Made by a program: the position numbers and the translations under genes. From IMG/VR virus record IMGVR_UViG_2671180673_000012: a DNA stretch of 21,281 nt. One strand, given 5' to 3'. Under the pieces are notes generated by a model. The model saw only the letters and a list, made by a program, of their open reading frames with translations. It was not told the DNA's origin and ran no database searches. Each line of letters begins with the position of its first letter. Position 1 is the stretch's first letter. Origin of the DNA: a virus. Taxonomy: Duplodnaviria; Heunggongvirae; Uroviricota; Caudoviricetes. Shown in pieces: positions 1,422 through 21,281 of the stretch.

Positions 1422-3896
1422 TTAAAAATCAGCCTGACTCGGGATCAGTTTTTGCCAGATAACTGAAACGTATTTTGCCTGGTAACGGGCGTCATCAAGT
1501 GCATTATGGCGCTCACCTTCGAATGGAATAGCCGTTCTGGNATCGAAGTCTATGGCTTTCCCCAGCTCAACGATTGTGCGTACATCGCGATCGTTGTAGT
1601 AACGCCACGGGCAGGGGATCCCCTGCCGTTCGTATGAACGGCGCAAAATCGTGTTGTCGAAGTTGGCTCCATTTCCCCAAACCTGAACAAAAAATTCACC
1701 GGAGTTTTCGTCGATAAATTCNCGCAATTGTAACAGTGCATCATCTAACGGGATTTCATCGGTCATAATGGCAGATTGCGCTTCGCGTGATTGCTTAAGC
1801 CACCATTTAATGGTGTCCCGATCAATGACTCCGCCAGCAGTTTCCAGATCGATAGTCTTACTAAATTCCGGTCCCATATCTCCGGTTTGCGGATCGAAAA
1901 ATATTGCACCTATTGAGATGATCGGGGCATCAGGATTTTTTCCCATGGTTTCAAGGTCGATCATTAGATGGTCACACGTCCTGCTGGTGGATGTGATTTC
2001 NTGATGACCGTTCACCTTAATTGNGTGATCTGCCGTCTCGCCAGTTTCATTATCGCTATNGTGATGCTGATTGCCGNCAGTGTTCTCCTTGTGTGGATGT
2101 TCAGCGCCTTCCATTTCCTCCGGATCATCTTCCTGAACTTCAACCTGATACTCTTCATCGAATGTTTCNTGGTATGTTGCGTCGCCCATCACCGCGCCAC
2201 AATCAGGGCAGTTGCCGCCGCCGGTCTGACCGCAGGCGGTGCAGACTTTTTCCACTTCCTGTTGCGCCACTGGTTCAGGCTGTTTCGTTTCTGGCTCGTT
2301 TTGTAACGCATTTGGGCTGTTTTGTTCCGCTTTCTGGCCGTTCTGTTCCGTTTCTTGCTGGTTCTGATTCACTGAATCGCGGGTTTCAATCCCCTTCACC
2401 CATTTCGGATCATTCGGGTCGCTAATCCCTGCAACAAATTCACCACGTGATACAGCAAGCAACTTATTGGCGTCAGGCTGGCTGATATTGGCTGCCTGCA
2501 TAATTTTGTTTACTTCGTCAGCGGTAACTTTTACCGGCTCTGGTTGTGCGATCGTGTCAGATGCACCAGTATTTTGTTGTGAACCTGAGTACGTGCCGTT
2601 TTTACGTGCGAAGTATTCCTCTTTTGTGATTTCCGTAGCTCCCAGGGCCAGTGCTTTTTCCAGACCAGAAAGTTTGTTTGCGCGACCGTATTTTTCGCCG
2701 TCCTTATCGGTGAAAAGGAAGTAGAACGGTCCCTCACGCTCTACAGATGGTTCGTCTTCCACTTCGCATTCGTTTTTTTCGTTGTCCGGCATTGCCGTTT
2801 CCACTGCATCAGTTTCTGGTACTGGTGACGGGAGAGTACCAGCTGTGCCCTGATTTGTTCCTTCGTCATCTTCAAACACGCCCTTGGTAGTCAGGTATTC
2901 AGTGATGTATTTGTTCAGTGCTACGGGATCTTTGTGAATGTCGATCGGACGCTCACGGACAAGGCCAAAAATAGTCTGACGGTCGTAGCGAACGGCATCG
3001 GGTTGTTTGCGCATTGATGCGGAAATGCGCTTCCAGTCTTCGCGATCTTTGTCGATAACTTCATTTTTTGCCCAGCGATGGATGCTGCCGTCAATGTTTC
3101 CGGTATCAATATCGCCAGGCCAGAGAGCGTAGGCCAGTTCTTCATCCAGCGTTTTCCATGTCTGCTTGTATTCGCGACAAATGGCGGCAGTGACTGGGTT
3201 GATTTTTCCTGCTGAGTTTTCAGTGTTCTGTTGATTGACTCTGGCGCTGGCGAGATCAACAACAGACGTGTATTTTCCAGTCTCTTTGCGCTCTGCGTCC
3301 TGCCGTTTTTTCCAGTTACGTAATTCAGCCTGAATTTCGGGCCATTTGGCACCCGGATTACATTTGTGTTTAACCCATCCGATAGCGAACAGTTTGCGTT
3401 CCGGATACATAGCGTTAATTTCAGGCGTTTTCATCAGTGCTTCAACGATATGCCCGTCAAAGGTAGCAACGTCTTCCTGCAGTAATTCCTGCGCGTCAAT
3501 CGCCATATCAACGGTGATGTTTTCACATGTACCGAACTTAACCAGGACCGCGTTCTGTACTTCAAGGGACAGCTTGTCAAAATTGACGTTCATCGGATCG
3601 GATTCTGGTTCGACCGGAATAAAGGAAGCGGATTCCTCATCCCAGCGGTTTTCCTGCATATATTCAGCATCCCAGGAATCGAGGGCAGGGCGGGGTATAC
3701 CGGGTTTATCCTCGCAGACAAGAAATTTATAAGCGCAGTCCTGAGCAGCCGGATAATGTTCCAGGAATTGCCAGTGAAATTTTGCGCGGGCGCGACGTTC
3801 ATCACCGGCTTCAATGGCAGTGGCTACAGCGACGGCACCTTCTTCCTTTATTGCCTGTTCGTCCGGAATGGCGGCGCAAATAAAGACTTTACTCAT
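1422..3896 (-). CDS. Large early protein with C-terminal DnaQ-like (DEDDh) 3'-5' exonuclease domain and central Cys4 zinc ribbon
   Basis: 824-aa ORF; exonuclease motifs near the C-terminus (MIDLETMG ... WGNGANFD ... HNALDDA); [16 protein letters not shown] zinc ribbon; GAGG RBS 9 nt upstream of ATG at 3896; several n-derived X residues. Confidence 0.8.
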
Positions 3897-3975: not shown

Positions 3976-4179
3976 TTACGGCGCTGTTTTTAATCCTGCC
4001 GGGATTTCGTTATTGTCCATGTGAATAACTTTATCGACCGGATAACAGTTGCCGGGAATTTTCTGTTCCGCTGCGGCAGCCATGCATTCTTTCATTGAGT
4101 TGTACATGCCGGTGATTGCATCAAGCGACTCACCAGTATTGAGATGTACAGTCAGAATGAGTACGAATAATGTGTTCAT
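3976..4179 (-). CDS. Small hypothetical protein with hydrophobic signal-peptide-like N-terminus
   Basis: ORF-track entry 3976..4185 trimmed to the ATG at 4179, which has a GGAGAG RBS 6 nt upstream; N-terminus MNTLFVLILTVHL; ATGA overlap with upstream gene stop. Confidence 0.5.
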   Translation of the reverse strand: MNTLFVLILTVHLNTGESLDAITGMYNSMKECMAAAAEQKIPGNCYPVDKVIHMDNNEIPAGLKTAP

Positions 4180-4364
4180 CGCCACTCTCCGAAAATACCG
4201 AGTTTAAGAAGGGCAATTCTGGAGAGTATGGAATTGTCATTCAGCAGGTAGGGTTCATATTTTCTCATATTGATTGCATCCTCGGTGAAATCCCTGTTAC
4301 TGAGCAGAACACCAATATTAAAGCACCCGTCAGACGTATTAACGTTTGGTAGTGACGTTTCCAT
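4176..4364 (-). CDS. Hypothetical small protein (62 aa)
   Basis: ATG at 4364 with GAGGA RBS 8 nt upstream; starts 10 nt after the Rha stop; stop overlaps next start (ATGA). Confidence 0.5.
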   Translation of the reverse strand: METSLPNVNTSDGCFNIGVLLSNRDFTEDAINMRKYEPYLLNDNSILSRIALLKLGIFGEWR

Positions 4365-4374
4365 TATCGCGTCC

Positions 4375-4932
4375 TCAACAATGAATTTTTAGCAATTGCT
4401 CCACAGTCATATTTTTAATTGCGCTCCGGTTTACAAGAGTCCATCCTTGTTTCTCCAGATAAAACCGGAAGGTATCCAGGGTGCAGACCATTGCGCCGTC
4501 AGGAACGGTTTCAGTGAATTTGATATTGCCGTGTTCGTCGAGACGGATAACCAGGGTGCGTCCGTCCCCGTGAATCATTTTGTCGGGAGACGGGGCGTTA
4601 TTCTGGCGCAGTTCTGCTTCCATGCGGTCGAACTCAGCAATGTATGCCTCTTTAAATGCAGCGGCTTTTTTGCCAGTGAAGCCCATCACCAGGAAAACGA
4701 AGCCGTTTTTGGTGATTTGGTACATTGGGAGTTTGCGCCCGGTTGAGTCGGTGTATTCGCTCGACACAAAATTGTGCTCAGTGAATTTTGCTGAACAGTC
4801 CAGATTGCGAATTTTATCCAACACTCGTTCGTGGCGTTTGCCAAAGAACTCGGCGATCGCAACAGACGTAGTGACAGCGCGACCATTTTCGATGGTTACG
4901 TCAGGGTGAGAAAGGGTAAGGATAGTAGCCAT
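4375..4932 (-). CDS. rha: Rha-family phage regulatory protein (antirepressor-like)
   Basis: Sequence matches the Phage_pRha pattern (AEFFGKRHERVLDKIRNLD ... FVFLVMGFTGKKAAAFKEAYIAEFDRME). The supplied ORF extends to 5229, but the internal ATG at 4932 has a GGAGG RBS 8 nt upstream and the extension runs through a terminator hairpin. Confidence 0.8.
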   Translation of the reverse strand: MATILTLSHPDVTIENGRAVTTSVAIAEFFGKRHERVLDKIRNLDCSAKFTEHNFVSSEYTDSTGRKLPMYQITKNGFVFLVMGFTGKKAAAFKEAYIAEFDRMEAELRQNNAPSPDKMIHGDGRTLVIRLDEHGNIKFTETVPDGAMVCTLDTFRFYLEKQGWTLVNRSAIKNMTVEQLLKIHC

Positions 4933-5099
4933 GATGGCAGCCTCCGCGATGAATTTGATTAACTCACCACCGAGGTTTTCCACGACCATAAGGGTGGTGA
5001 GACGTACAGGGGTGGAAATACCGGTCATCACGGAACCCGGCCAGCCTTGCGGCTGCCCTGCACGCCCCACCATAATGCGAATGTGGCTGTGCTTAACGC

Positions 5100-5124
5100 A
5101 TAAAAAAACCGCCTGAGCGCGGTT
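5100..5124 (-). terminator. Rho-independent terminator, leftward transcription
   Basis: On the minus strand: 6-bp stem AACCGC/GCGGTT, 6-nt loop, then a run of T; located upstream of the Rha RBS. Confidence 0.5.
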
Positions 5125-5775
5125 ATGCGCCGTGAATGATTTCGGGTTTCCACGCCCGGCACCCGTTTTATGAGGTGCAGGTGCACTATAATTCCACCCG
5201 TTCTGGTTTTCAATAGCTACATTCAACATTTTCTCTACCTTTCATCACCGAAGTGAACTTTGTTGATGCGGTGCCTGGTGCCTCCAGGTGACGTTAACCA
5301 GTTAACAATTAACGTCGGATACAGAGCATTCCCGTTACGCCCGTAAAAGACCGCTTGTTTTAACTGTTCCGCGTGCGCTGAGCCGCATTCACCGCATCAC
5401 AAAATTCACTTTAAAAAGGGCGGCAGAGCAGTCACGGAGTAGAACTGATACCGCCAAAAGTCACCAGAAAATTGATAACAGAGGGCGTTGCAGCGGAGTT
5501 GTCACTTAAGCGTATGGTCAACCTGACAACCCGGTGTCCTCAACGGGGGAAGGAATAACCCCGCCATACTTACCGCCGCGCCATTTCGCGGATTGCCACA
5601 ACCGGAAGCGCACGATCGAATTAAATTTAACGACGACCTATACAGAGAGACTAACTTCTCCGGGCGCTTTCGTGTTATGCCCTGACTTTTCAGGGATATA
5701 TCCTTTTCAGTAAACTGTCAGTGCCGGATTCTTATCCGTGTCCGGCGCACGCACTCTACCTCACCTGTGAATAAA

Positions 5776-6162
5776 TTAATGATTAATTGATATTTTGTTG
5801 TTTGATTCAACTTTCCCATCGGATGTGTGATGCTTTAAATCACAGGAATTAATACTGCTCGCTGTAAAATGATTTTCAAGGGGAGCTATTCGAATCCCTT
5901 TCTTTTTCATTAACAAGCCAAATCCTTTATTAATGATGTCCATTAATTCCAGGAAGTATTTTTCATGTAAATCCTGGTTATCAGAGAGCTGCTTCTCTTC
6001 GTACAGACCGATAAAGGCACGACGCACGTTACCGGATATAGTATCGATGGTTTCTTTTTCTACGGTACTCAGGTCAAGAGTCGCCAGTTGAGAGCGAACC
6101 ACATTCGATGCCATTTCCTGGAATGGTACTGGTAAATCTTTAAATTCCATCGTCAACCTCAT
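5776..6162 (-). CDS. Hypothetical protein, AT-rich gene of the early left operon
   Basis: 128-aa ORF; ATG at 6162 overlaps the upstream small-ORF stop (TGATG); alternative ATG at 6150 has a GAGG RBS 6 nt upstream; no domain recognised. Confidence 0.6.
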   Translation of the reverse strand: MRLTMEFKDLPVPFQEMASNVVRSQLATLDLSTVEKETIDTISGNVRRAFIGLYEEKQLSDNQDLHEKYFLELMDIINKGFGLLMKKKGIRIAPLENHFTASSINSCDLKHHTSDGKVESNNKISINH

Positions 6163-6314
6163 CAGTCAGTGTTTCTGGTTAACCAGCGACGCGCGCCAGC
6201 TTCAGTTTTAAACGTTTTGCTTCTGGTATACGTCATCGCGGTGAATGTGCCGTCCTGGTTGGGAAACACGCCGTACACCAGAGATTCGTTGTTGCCAAGC
6301 TCGATAGTATCCAT
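6162..6314 (-). CDS. Small hypothetical protein (50 aa), first ORF downstream of the leftward early promoter
   Basis: Hand-translated minus-strand ORF MDTIELGNNESLVYGVFPNQDGTFTAMTYTRSKTFKTEAGARRWLTRNTD; GAGG RBS 5 nt upstream of ATG at 6314; below the ORF-track length cutoff. Confidence 0.35.
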   Translation of the reverse strand: MDTIELGNNESLVYGVFPNQDGTFTAMTYTRSKTFKTEAGARRWLTRNTD

Positions 6315-6385
6315 GCTGACCTCATTTCCCCTTAACGCCGGGTGGCGGAACTAAAACCTACAGCGCCGTGCTGTTCTTGATAGAA

Positions 6386-6414
6386 ATATTAGTAACGCGG
6401 ATATTTTAAGTCAA
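6386..6414 (-). promoter_or_regulatory. Candidate leftward early promoter (pL-like)
   Basis: Minus-strand TTGACT, 17-nt spacer, TAATAT; lies between the repressor-gene terminator and the first leftward ORF. Confidence 0.45.
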
Positions 6415-6511
6415 CAGTATGGCGTATGATATTTTTGATTTGGTAACTATGTAAATGTTTTTTCAAGGGAAAAATATTAGTTATACAGCTGATTTGCAGA
6501 AGTTATGGCAC

Positions 6512-6541
6512 AAAAAAACCGACTAAGACGTCGGTTTTTTT
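6512..6541. terminator. Bidirectional rho-independent terminator downstream of the repressor gene
   Basis: 7-bp stem AACCGAC/GTCGGTT flanked by an A-tract on one side and a T-tract on the other. Confidence 0.6.
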
Positions 6542-6567
6542 GTTGTGGATGGGGTAGTGAGCGGTGG

Positions 6568-7029
6568 CTACTGGTTACGTTTCTTTAGTGCCAGCATGTT
6601 CTCGAAGGCTTCCTCGTAGAGCTTGTTTAGTCCACGTAGCTGGTTAAGGAGTTTGGCTTTTTCTGACGCAGGTAGAATCTCGAAGAGGTTAAGTAACTCT
6701 GCCTGTTCTTCATTGACCAGCCTCCATCCTTTGCCTGAAAAGTTATCATCATAAGTATCTGATGATCTTACATAATTCATTAAGTCTTTAAGGTCTTCTC
6801 GAATGTCCTCTGGTTTTACCTTTAACAGAGCCGCAAATTTTAGCGCAGCGTCGGTATTTACCGGTATCTTGCCGTTCAGATACTGGCTAACGGTGCCTTG
6901 AGATTCGAATCCCAACAACTCAGCCGCCAGCTCTTGAGTCAGCTTCAGCTCTTTTTTTCTTGCATTCCATGCGGCTTTTAAATTCTTGCTCGCTTCTGGA
7001 GTTGCAATCACTTCGCGTGTTTTTTTCAT
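6568..7029 (-). CDS. DicA-like XRE-family HTH repressor (prophage immunity repressor)
   Basis: 153 aa; N-terminal HTH (LTQELAAELLGFESQGTVSQYLNG); C-terminal region resembles DicA as recalled from memory (LPASEKAKLLNQLRGLNKLYEE); transcribed divergently from the Cro-like gene; no S24 peptidase domain. Confidence 0.8.
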   Translation of the reverse strand: MKKTREVIATPEASKNLKAAWNARKKELKLTQELAAELLGFESQGTVSQYLNGKIPVNTDAALKFAALLKVKPEDIREDLKDLMNYVRSSDTYDDNFSGKGWRLVNEEQAELLNLFEILPASEKAKLLNQLRGLNKLYEEAFENMLALKKRNQ

Positions 7030-7063: not shown

Positions 7064-7077
7064 AGATAGTCTGGCTG

Positions 7078-7106
7078 TTGATCTTTAAAATTAGCGGGGC
7101 TAATAT
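7078..7106 (+). promoter_or_regulatory. Candidate rightward early promoter (pR-like)
   Basis: TTGATC, 17-nt spacer, TAATAT, about 30 nt upstream of the Cro-like gene. Confidence 0.4.
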
Positions 7107-7136
7107 TTGCTCGAGGCATAACGTAGAAGGTTGGCT

Positions 7137-13136: not shown

Positions 13137-13194
13137 TGCAGCGGGTGCTTGAGGCTATCTGTCTCAGGCATGAACACCAAAAGGCAGATAGAGA

Positions 13195-13265
13195 AAAGCC
13201 CCAGTTAACATTACGCGTCCGGCAAGACGCTTAACATTAATCTGAGGCCATATCTATGCTCTACA
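13195..13265 (-). ncRNA. Putative Sok-like antisense RNA region (approximate)
   Basis: Inferred only from hok/sok architecture, where the antisense RNA overlaps the mok-like start region of the leader; boundaries not determinable from sequence. Confidence 0.3.
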
Positions 13266-13312
13266 CACGTAGGTTAGCCTCTTACGTGCCGAAAGGCAAG
13301 GAGAAGCAGGCT

Positions 13313-13468
13313 ATGAAGCAGCAAAAGGCGATGCTAATCGCCCTGATCGTCATCTGTTTAACCGTCATTGTGACGGCACTGGTAACGAGGAAAGACCTCT
13401 GCGAGGTACGAATCCGAACCGGCCAGACGGAGGTCGCTGTCTTCACAGCTTACGAACCTGAGGAGTAA
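13313..13468 (+). CDS. hokD: Hok/Gef-family type I toxin (51 aa)
   Basis: MKQQKAMLIALIVICLTVIVTALVTRKDLCEVRIRTGQTEVAVFTAYEPEE: single transmembrane helix plus conserved RK(D/S)LCE(V/I)R motif; AGGAG RBS 9 nt upstream; the ORF-track entry from 13256 is an in-frame mok-like extension. The hokD/relF assignment is from recalled sequence. Confidence 0.85.
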   Translation: MKQQKAMLIALIVICLTVIVTALVTRKDLCEVRIRTGQTEVAVFTAYEPEE

Positions 13469-19957: not shown

Positions 19958-20033
19958 GGCCCTTTAGCTCAGTGGTGAGAGCGAGCGACTCATAATCGCC
20001 AGGTCGCTGGTTCAAATCCAGCAAGGGCCACCA
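19958..20033 (+). tRNA. ileZ: tRNA with CAU anticodon, Ile2 (lysidine)-type by resemblance to ileX/ileY
   Basis: Manual cloverleaf: acceptor GGCCCTT/AAGGGCC, D-arm GCTC..GAGC, anticodon loop CTCATAA, T-loop TTCAAAT, encoded CCA. Confidence 0.85.
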
Positions 20034-20040
20034 TCACATA

Positions 20041-20117
20041 CCGCCATTAGCTCATCAGGAAAGAGCGCCAGCCTTCGAAGCTGGTTGCGCGGAGTTCGGG
20101 TCCCCGAAGGCGGTCCA
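20041..20117 (+). tRNA. argN: tRNA-Arg (anticodon UCG) with atypical T-loop and one acceptor-stem mismatch
   Basis: Manual fold: D-arm GCTC..GAGC, anticodon stem CCAGC/GCTGG, loop CTTCGAA, T-loop TTCGGGT, encoded CCA. Confidence 0.7.
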
Positions 20118-20130
20118 TTATCTGTATCCT

Positions 20131-20207
20131 GCGTTGTTAGCTCAGCCGGACAGAGCAATTGCCTTCTAAGCAATCGGTCACTGGTTCGAATCCAGTACAA
20201 CGCGCCA
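20131..20207 (+). tRNA. argO: tRNA-Arg (anticodon UCU)
   Basis: Manual fold: acceptor GCGTTGT/ACAACGC, anticodon stem ATTGC/GCAAT, loop CTTCTAA, T-loop TTCGAAT, encoded CCA. Confidence 0.85.
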
Positions 20208-20223
20208 CACTTATTTTCCCTGG

Positions 20224-20246
20224 CTCGCTTTTGCGGGCTTTTTTTT
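20224..20246 (+). terminator. Rho-independent terminator after the tRNA cluster
   Basis: GCTCGC-TTT-GCGGGC hairpin (one G-U pair) followed by eight T. Confidence 0.55.
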
Positions 20247-20443
20247 AAATGTCTCACAATTCAGGCGGTTGACTGTTGTCTGGTTTGCGGGGAGTTTGTT
20301 AAAAGAAACTGGCATGGTGAATCCCCCTGTGCGGAGGGGCAATCAGCGAGTAGGTATATGGGATAATCGCGGATTCAGGTGCTGGTACTGAATTCACCGG
20401 GAGGCACCCGGCACCATGCAATGGCACATAGCGCCACTCTCCA

Positions 20444-20465
20444 GCCCCTCTCCGGAGGGGCTTTT
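20444..20465 (+). terminator. Hairpin terminator-like element
   Basis: GCCCCTC-TCCG-GAGGGGC followed by TTTT. Confidence 0.4.
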
Positions 20466-20656
20466 CTGTGCCGGATACATCACAGTTTCTGGAACCTTAG
20501 GTACTACAGTATCAGTCAGGGTGCTATATTTTCAGATGTGATGAAAGCCTGTCAGCAGGCAGGGCGTATCGGAAATGACCCAGTAGAGAAAACGTTGACT
20601 CAGATACCGGTGCTGAGTTACCGGGAAACCGGCATCACATGACCGCTATCCTTCCA

Positions 20657-20772: not shown

Positions 20773-21099
20773 ATGACTAAAAATACTCGTTTTTCCCCCG
20801 AAGTCCGTCAACGGGCAGTCCGTATGGTTCTGGAAAGTCAGAGCGAATATGACTCACAATGGGCGACAATTTGTTCCATTGCTCCAAAGATTGGCTGTAC
20901 GCCGGAGACTCTGCGTGTCTGGGTTCGCCAGCATGAGCGGGATACCGGGGGCGGTGATGGAGGGCTCACCACCGCTGAACGTCAGCGTCTGAAAGAGCTG
21001 GAACGTGAAAATCGTGAACTGCGCCGCAGTAACGATATCCTTCGCCAGGCTTCCGCTTATTTTGCGAAGGCGGAGTTCGACCGCCTCTGGAAAAAATGA
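20773..21099 (+). CDS. IS629-like transposase OrfA (HTH, leucine-zipper region)
   Basis: 108 aa: [19 protein letters not shown] ... [31 protein letters not shown], an IS3-family OrfA pattern. Confidence 0.85.
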
Positions 21100-21281
21100 T
21101 GCCACTGCTGGATAAGCTGCGTGAGCAGTACGGGGTCGGACCGCTATGCAGCGAACTGCATATTGCCCCGTCAACGTATTACCACTGTCAGCAACAGCGA
21201 CATCATCCGGATAAACGCAGTGCCCGTGCGCAGCGCGATGACTGGCTGAAGAAAGAGATACAGCGCGTATACGATGAAAAT
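21096..21281 (+). CDS. IS629-like transposase OrfB, N-terminal fragment (partial, runs off window)
   Basis: -1 frame relative to OrfA, starting in the AAAAAATGATG overlap; reads [30 protein letters not shown]...; no stop before the window end. Confidence 0.8.

Follow-up and report, generated by a model that had tools for sequence, protein, structure and literature searches.

Here we analyse the start of the leftward early operon in a 21,281-nucleotide (nt) stretch of viral DNA (IMG/VR record IMGVR_UViG_2671180673_000012; hereafter the window), which is a lambdoid Qin/Rac-like Escherichia coli prophage integrated adjoining ompW. A sequence identical to the locus (100% over 1371 nt) is found in the RefSeq entry for E. 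coli EcPF7, where RefSeq and the Prokaryotic Genome Annotation Pipeline (PGAP) give the order ompW-int-xis-exonuclease-DUF1482-dicB-Rha-hypothetical-DUF1391-HTH (HTH, helix-turn-helix). Read along the minus strand in the direction of transcription, the window holds a repressor gene, a terminator, a promoter, two short open reading frames (ORFs) termed ORF50 and ORF124, an untranslated region (UTR), the small RNA (sRNA) DicF, the Rha/Ant gene, dicB, a ydfD-like gene, a RecE-like exonuclease gene, xis and int. Judged by identity and operon context, ORF50 (DUF1391 family) and ORF124 (PHROG 6937) are almost certainly the coding genes nearest the promoter in an early-left operon of the dicBF type. 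In E. coli K-12, the dicBF transcript begins upstream of ydfA and, through processing by RNases E and III, yields DicF (PMC10448788; PMC5069750). The module is the already known ydfA-led start of this operon, made up of one backbone gene and one variable-slot gene, which reclassifies it from possible exclusion cargo. The initial annotation of the two ORFs had overlooked the dicBF operon: DicF lies 306 nt downstream of the pair, followed by DicB. Relatives were sampled as 80 viral contigs retrieved using ORF50, and prevalence was counted by megablast against 5426 complete E. coli genomes.

The immunity repressor (6568–7029, minus strand; 153 amino acids (aa)) matches Pfam HTH_3 (E = 1.1e-9) and is named 'helix-turn-helix domain-containing protein' by PGAP. 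It is of the short DicA/RacR-like type, without a peptidase domain and with a weak match to the NCBIfam DicA subfamily. It lies upstream in the orientation of DicA, and a Cro-like gene diverges from it; genes of the YdaS(Cro) and YdaT(CII) type (Pfam YdaS and YdaT) run rightward from 7131. An intrinsic terminator hairpin 3' of the repressor gene (6510–6543, minus strand), consisting of a perfect 14-nt inverted repeat with A and T runs at its sides, shields transcription of the module from repressor-gene read-through. The leftward early promoter, the equivalent of PL or dicBp, was located by promoter scan at 6386–6414 (minus strand; TTGACT-17-TAATAT). It is the inverted-repeat sibling, over 34 nt, of the sequence at 7075–7108 that contains the rightward promoter (7078–7106). 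A putative operator half-site, AAATATTAGY, occurs at 6384–6393 and 6472–6481, with a copy at the rightward promoter (7099–7108). Loci of class A that have other repressors keep the promoter at the same place. The K-12 promoter dicBp reads TTGACC-17-TAATCT and is regarded as an analogue of PL (PMC10448788). We identify the locus as a dicBF operon because its leftward promoter and leader align with K-12 dicBp position for position. The initial annotation had placed the two ORFs directly downstream of a leftward early promoter, at the map position held in lambda by N and the sieB/ral genes, and both placements are borne out.

The 5' leader (6315–6379, minus strand) is of the short K-12 type, with about 65 nt between the predicted transcription start and ORF50. 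A leader block, GTTCCGCYACCC(C)GGCGTTAAGGGGAAATGAGGTCAGC, which includes the Shine–Dalgarno sequence of ORF50, is kept in all relatives (62 distinct upstream regions aligned). Because the DUF1391 gene and the 40 nt that precede it are almost invariant, an immunity mosaic junction can be placed in the leader, immediately 5' of this block, with ORF50 as the first conserved gene past that junction. The fold of the window leader is no more stable than its shuffles (z = +1.37) and contains only hairpins of 4–5 base pairs. Rfam scans of the window and three relatives matched none of the known RNA elements to the leader, although a search dedicated to nut sites was not made. A hairpin at 6360–6374 (minus strand) stands directly after the predicted transcription start and is present in the short-leader relatives, where the 5' hairpins differ in sequence (ACAGC..GCTGT, CACCG..CGGTG and GCAC..GTGC). 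Such a 5'-terminal hairpin may stabilize the operon mRNA. Most relatives (L003, L009, L014 and others, at about 2840–3000) carry a leader of about 150 nt from the promoter to the DUF1391 gene, which the window lacks. This long leader is GC-rich and near-invariant across many immunity types (ACCCACCCCGCCCCACAGAA...GGCGTAAGAACATGACGGC...); it has no Rfam match, and its near-invariance leaves no covariation from which to judge structure. Some records annotate it as an N-terminal extension of 77–83 aa, in a frame that is broken in several variants.

ORF50 (6162–6314, minus strand) encodes a DUF1391 protein of 50 aa, a homologue of YdfA from Qin and YdaF from Rac. It matches Pfam DUF1391 (PF07151) over profile positions 1–47 of 48 (E = 1.8e-27; 95.2 bits, cut-off 27.3) and phrog_751 (E = 6e-35), and PGAP names it 'DUF1391 family protein'. 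Across 40 distinct alleles, the ratio of nonsynonymous to synonymous substitution rates (dN/dS) is 0.17, and variable sites are distributed over the three codon positions as 9/11/26. The GC content of the gene is 0.503 (0.61 at third codon positions), which is in the 63rd percentile of same-size windows, the mean of the whole window being 0.486. At the protein level, identity is 76–98% across Escherichia and Salmonella. The gene is present in 2540 of the 5426 genomes (47%), at 1–4 copies each. The same arrangement, in which a gene of about 50 aa stands just 3' of the immunity repressor, is found in K-12 Qin, in Rac and in the 80 viral contigs. Among these contigs the genes upstream of the DUF1391 gene form 13 clusters, which include S24-type cI repressors, DicA-like and RacR-like short repressors and a ParE toxin (the paaR2 module of CP-933P), and behind at least 12 different immunity types the DUF1391 gene is nearly constant. 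ORF50 is a prophage backbone gene and not accessory cargo; the initial annotation, which had pointed to a cargo site, is for this gene overturned by its conservation across relatives.

Two further matches of ORF50 are recorded here. In some phage records (for example, ON470583.1 and PV340562.1) the DUF1391 gene is labelled 'head-DNA stabilization protein D', probably because of a chance similarity over 19 residues to SHP, the head decoration protein of phage 21 (PDB 1td0), which was the sole match of a DUF1391 profile search in the PDB and was rejected. The only PADLOC match of ORF50 was to AbiEi (E = 0.004 over 29 residues), and sequence searches with ORF50 in NCBIfam and the PDB likewise yielded no usable match.

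ORF124 (5776–6150, minus strand) encodes a PHROG 6937 protein of 124 aa and starts 11 nt past the ORF50 stop. Its frame is open for 128 codons (5776–6162, minus strand); RefSeq/PGAP, PHROG 6937 and all homologues place the true start at Met5 (MEFKDLP...), and a GAGG Shine–Dalgarno sequence lies 6 nt 5' of it. The protein matches phrog_6937 with E = 1.5e-76 and has 224 homologues, all from Escherichia or Salmonella. No domain match was obtained in Pfam, NCBIfam, PADLOC or the PDB. A profile search of 1.84 billion representative proteins returned 57 clusters, none of them linked to an annotated family. The initial statement that neither protein has a recognizable domain is therefore correct for ORF124 and incorrect for ORF50, and the same division applies to composition: ORF124 is strongly AT-rich (GC 0.379, falling to 0.316 in its 3' half; lowest 0.3% of same-size windows), and ORF50 is not. 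That both ORFs are real genes is confirmed by their family matches and by dN/dS, which is 0.48 for the N-domain of ORF124. An antisense ORF at 5933–6091 (plus strand) was judged spurious, being contained in the conserved reading frame of ORF124 and unsupported by homologues.

The ORF124 protein is a mosaic. Residues 1 to about 52–53 form a conserved acidic helical hairpin (MEFKDLPxxIQxIAAxxL...NVRxAFxGLY), which is kept even in family members that are only 22–35% identical overall. Beyond the hairpin there is a third helix, followed by a disordered tail (residues 90–124) encoded by AT-rich DNA. Past about residue 52–53 the C termini of the family are unrelated, and total lengths range from 100 to 216 aa. 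A gene with the ORF124 N-domain directly follows ORF50 in 71 of the 80 loci, and in 61 the spacing is exactly 11 nt; DNA of the window's ORF124 is present in 928 of the 5426 genomes (17%). One protein from the representative search (P0285; 149 aa) has a YdfC-like N-terminal half joined to the MEFKDLP N-domain, and is either a natural fusion of adjacent slot genes or a frameshift or gene-calling artefact.

The slot in which ORF124 lies is bounded by the stop codon of ORF50 and the conserved DicF-UTR block, and measures between about 380 nt (in the window) and about 1410 nt, in at least 10 length classes. In the window it contains ORF124 alone. In K-12 Qin, dicA is followed by ydfA-ydfB-ydfC-dicF-dicB-ydfD-ydfE, and the slot is occupied by ydfB-ydfC; neither gene is present in the window, where ORF124 takes their place. 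NCTC86 has ydfA-ydfB-ydfC together with an ORF124 homologue. In K-12 Rac, where the layout is racR-ydaG-ydaF, the slot holds sieB on the opposite strand (L084, 2172–2660). Because the window lacks ydfB-ydfC and NCTC86 combines them with an ORF124 homologue, the genes found in K-12 represent one variant and do not define the operon. Among relatives (L003–L082, with the DUF1391 gene at 3001–3150) the slot also contains at least seven unrelated families of opposite-strand ORFs (phrog_18692, 7249, 4987, 6315, 1244 and 8894, plus a 91-aa family), none of which has a match in Pfam and all of which begin within the conserved DicF-UTR block. In relatives, this slot behind the DUF1391 gene forms a hotspot for dark-matter cargo. 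The view of this position as a site for accessory or exclusion cargo is upheld as regards the variable slot and the presence of sieB in Rac; it does not extend to ORF50, which is backbone, nor to a tie of ORF124 with exclusion or defence.

Downstream of ORF124 lies a structured UTR of 306 nt (5470–5775, minus strand; fold z = −2.65). It is the start of a block conserved in relatives (about 89–90% identity, in many phages), the boundary of which falls at the ORF124 stop. By analogy with K-12, for which processing of the DicF precursor by RNases E and III is documented (PMC10448788), this UTR is the presumptive precursor segment for DicF processing. DicF itself, with its intrinsic terminator, is found at 5418–5469 (minus strand; Rfam RF00039, 71.5 bits; gathering score, 48). 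The cell-division inhibitor gene dicB (4176–4364, minus strand) was assigned by the PGAP annotation of the identical sequence, and a DUF1482/YdfD-like gene (3976–4185, minus strand; Pfam DUF1482) belongs to the same operon as dicB. Between DicF and dicB, an annotated 284-aa 'Rha family' ORF (4375–5229, minus strand) carries two RNAs in its 5' third, at 4990–5077 and 5102–5178, namely an isrK-like RNA (67.7 bits) and a C4 antisense RNA (81.9 bits); Pfam names the same stretch an 'Ash' domain. The true Rha/Ant coding sequence probably begins at ATG 4932 (MATILTL, preceded by GGAGG), which would place an antirepressor control cassette like P1 c4-icd-ant or Gifsy isrK between DicF and dicB. In the rightward region, a sok antitoxin RNA match (117 bits) at 13143–13318 (plus strand) points to a type I toxin–antitoxin locus of the hok/sok kind. 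The intervals 19958–20473 and 21054–21170 (plus strand) hold three tRNA genes, then an STnc100 sRNA match (136 bits), and, at the right end, an ALIL pseudoknot (an IS3-family frameshift element) that indicates an insertion sequence there.

We compared the locus with known systems. ORF50 and its K-12 counterparts YdfA and YdaF share length, leader, ribosome-binding site and place behind a repressor-controlled promoter. YdfA-type sequences are about 84–88% identical to ORF50, and the C-terminal tails differ (..WLTRNTD in ORF50, in place of ..WLERNSGE). Rac differs further in having a 44-aa gene, ydaG, before ydaF. With the Qin dicBF operon, the window has in common a DicA-like repressor, a divergent Cro-like gene, a promoter homologous to dicBp, a first gene of the DUF1391 family, a long UTR, DicF and its terminator, dicB and a gene resembling ydfD. 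It differs from Qin in the PHROG 6937 gene that replaces ydfB-ydfC, in the isrK/C4-like RNA pair and Rha/Ant gene between DicF and dicB, in a left side that appears intact (exonuclease, xis and int) and in insertion at ompW. In mEp460_ev081, a functional temperate phage, the order agrees with that of the window: the repressor gene is followed by a 50-aa gene, a gene of the MEFKDLP type, the DicF region, dicB, the exonuclease gene, xis and int. The phage has no N-like gene between its repressor and the 50-aa gene. Its repressor is a different one, of 135 aa, and its second protein shares only the N-terminal 52 or so aa with ORF124.

The module and the lambda N/ral/sieB segment have the same map position; in both, these are the first genes of a repressor-controlled leftward operon and the site is cargo-prone. 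The lambda operon likewise ends in recombination, xis and int genes, with kil as its division inhibitor where the window has dicB. Judged by Pfam and PHROGs, neither protein resembles N, Ral or SieB in sequence or profile. Both are soluble and have no transmembrane segment: ORF50 has an isoelectric point (pI) of 6.1, 8% arginine and a maximum Kyte–Doolittle 19-residue window of 0.17, and the corresponding values for ORF124 are 5.9, 3.2% and 0.51. An N-type antiterminator was rejected on this composition and on the lack of an N-terminal arginine cluster, in agreement with the initial remark that neither protein is arginine-rich like N. Unlike N, the two proteins lack an arginine-rich motif and a basic pI, and the predicted leader fold showed no stable hairpin resembling boxB. 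A SieB-like membrane exclusion protein was rejected on hydropathy.

Structure prediction, which had been proposed as a check on the two proteins, gave a confident model for ORF50 only. The AlphaFold2 model of ORF50 (predicted local distance difference test score (pLDDT) 82.6) has four strands (residues 2–5, 11–18, 24–27 and 32–35) and a C-terminal helix (38–48). In this predicted topology, an antiparallel sheet plus a C-terminal helix, and in size, ORF50 matches the class that includes AP2, the N-terminal domain of lambda integrase (Int-N) and CedA, a lead with weak support; AtERF, CedA, lambda Int-N and Tn916 Int-N have been grouped as one β-sheet fold class (PMC8614690). The model superposes closely on AP2 domains, and the named Foldseek matches to it in BFVD are an integrase and HNH endonucleases. 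At the sequence level there is a weak resemblance between ORF50 and CedA in the last strand and helix (RS..F....A.RW). An hhalign comparison of DUF1391 with the CedA family aligned the same elements, TYTRSKTFKTEAGARRW with SFLRSPAFTVPESAQRW, at E = 0.003 and a probability of only 9.9%, and the Pfam CedA model weakly matched 2 of 22 DUF1391 members. None of these comparisons reached statistical significance, and none of the hhalign comparisons of DUF1391 (with AP2, CedA as a single sequence or as a family, YegP/DUF1508 and the prophage's own integrase) was significant; AP2, YegP and the integrase scored below the CedA family.

From these data we propose the following account. The short DicA-like repressor would hold the promoter at 6414–6386 off, and derepression would give a polycistronic RNA starting about 65 nt upstream of ORF50 and traversing ORF50, ORF124, the structured UTR and DicF. 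Read-through of the DicF terminator would extend this RNA into the Rha/Ant gene, dicB, the ydfD-like gene, the exonuclease gene, xis and int. When RacR is perturbed, Rac ydaF and ydaG rise 40–70-fold, along with other early-left genes (PMC11014345). Because ORF50 and ORF124 have their own GAGG ribosome-binding sites and lie 11 nt apart, they would be made together as the first early-left proteins. Both are small, soluble, mildly acidic and presumably cytoplasmic, and probably bind other macromolecules early in development; roles as N-type antiterminators, membrane exclusion proteins or toxins are unlikely. ORF50 probably acts through its predicted sheet-plus-helix domain of the AP2/lambda Int-N/Tn916 Int-N/CedA class, on a target that may be a protein (as with CedA), such as RNA polymerase, or else DNA. 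ORF124 would be a modular partner or effector that probably docks by its constant N-terminal hairpin, with specificity residing in the variable C terminus. Taken whole, with the dicBF early-left context and the proposed roles of both proteins, this is our best explanation and we consider it reasonably probable; the molecular mode of action of the two proteins is put forward tentatively.

Several points weigh against this account. In the literature searched we found no experiment on DUF1391 or PHROG 6937 proteins and no function given to YdfA, YdaF or DUF1391. YdfA, YdfB and YdfC were uncharacterized as of 2023, the characterized products of the operon being DicF, DicB and YdfD (PMC10448788). 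The non-toxic outcome of inducing the K-12 operon after deletion of dicF and dicB (PMC5069750) speaks for the account, but it concerns K-12 ydfABC, in which there is no ORF124 homologue. ORF50 is not universal, as phage Rac-SA53 has the same 153-aa repressor and another first leftward gene, which in that phage (L087, 4575–4880) encodes an unrelated 101-aa protein (rac11), the repressor being annotated dicA. The predicted ORF50 sheet is poor in basic residues, and DNA binding is therefore disfavoured. Finally, the ORF124 model, a three-helix bundle, is of moderate quality (pLDDT 62) and has no specific match.

The alternative that survives best, although we regard it as improbable, is that one or both genes, realistically ORF124, are superinfection-exclusion or anti-phage defence cargo like sieB, ral or rex. 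ORF124 can be read as cargo-like because it is AT-rich, mosaic and the less common of the two genes: its composition is foreign, it is confined to 17% of genomes, and its slot houses diverse cargo in relatives, including sieB in Rac. The combination of a constant N terminus with a variable C terminus would also fit an arms-race protein, and DicB of the same operon is known to protect against some phages (PMC6832061). Against this, ORF50 is backbone, and ORF124 has no defence-family match (PADLOC, Pfam or NCBIfam) and, unlike SieB, no transmembrane segments. The true slot cargo genes of relatives lie on the opposite strand, whereas ORF124 shares the strand of the operon, follows a repressed promoter and has none of its own, and would therefore be silent in a lysogen. 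The recurrence of ORF124-type genes in mEp460, a functional phage, and in 71 of the 80 loci likewise speaks against cargo.

Less probable again is that ORF50 is a sequence-specific DNA-binding regulator, inserting its β-sheet into the major groove like AP2/ERF and the arm-binding domains of the lambda and Tn916 integrases, with ORF124 as a modulator. In that case ORF50 might serve as an early accessory factor at operators, at arm-type sites of the attachment region (att) or at the origin. ORF50 lacks the basic sheet residues of AP2 and Int-N. The C-terminal domain of CedA, a member of the same fold class, binds the β-i4 element of RNA polymerase (RNAP) and not DNA (PMC10803263). A more specific form of our own account, which we rate as a long shot, is that DUF1391 proteins are phage mimics of this CedA domain that dock, immediately upon derepression, on β-i4, which is a lineage-specific insertion of E. 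coli RNAP. They would be tail-less mimics: CedA has an N-terminal tail that reaches σ70, and ORF50 lacks it.

It is also conceivable, at a still lower probability, that the proteins matter little and that translation of the two ORFs mainly keeps ribosomes on the long 5' stretch of the precursor of DicF and DicB, which would shield it against RNase E and termination by Rho and so set the yield of DicF. RNase E destabilizes the region 5' of DicF in K-12, where ydfA RNA tracks DicF (PMC10448788); slot content is exchanged freely, and no ydfABC phenotype is known (PMC5069750). A translated spacer is hard to reconcile with purifying selection on ORF50 at the protein level (dN/dS 0.17; variable sites 9/11/26), with its 76–98% identity across Escherichia and Salmonella and confident, compact predicted fold, or with an ORF124 N-terminal hairpin conserved at 22–35% overall identity. 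Finally, a toxin–antitoxin-like pair, with ORF50 as a small β-rich antitoxin and ORF124 as a helical toxin, is most implausible: ORF50 occurs without ORF124 in K-12 Qin, in Rac and in 9 of the 80 loci and carries no signature of a DNA-binding or toxin family, ORF124 lacks a catalytic motif and has exchangeable C termini, and the promoter is under a phage repressor and is not autoregulated.

The account preferred here, in which ORF50 and ORF124 open a dicBF-type early-left operon, bears on a large set of prophages. About half of the complete E. coli genomes carry DUF1391 genes, frequently more than one, and these genes are the first to be expressed upon derepression by the N-less lambdoid prophages (Qin, Rac, CP-933P, PPompW and mEp460). 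Were the mimicry of CedA to prove true, DUF1391 would displace CedA or otherwise retune σ70 transcription, and one operon would couple a modulator of transcription and division to DicF and DicB (or KilR). The N-less phages of the Qin/Rac type would then possess an RNAP-directed first early gene of their own, and the partner from PHROG 6937 would serve as an adaptor, with a second target chosen by its variable C terminus. More generally, the role of the pair would fill a gap in the early-left programme, in which read-through of the DicF terminator leads into dicB and the recombination and excision genes, and would also clarify the influence of cryptic prophages on host division and phage resistance.

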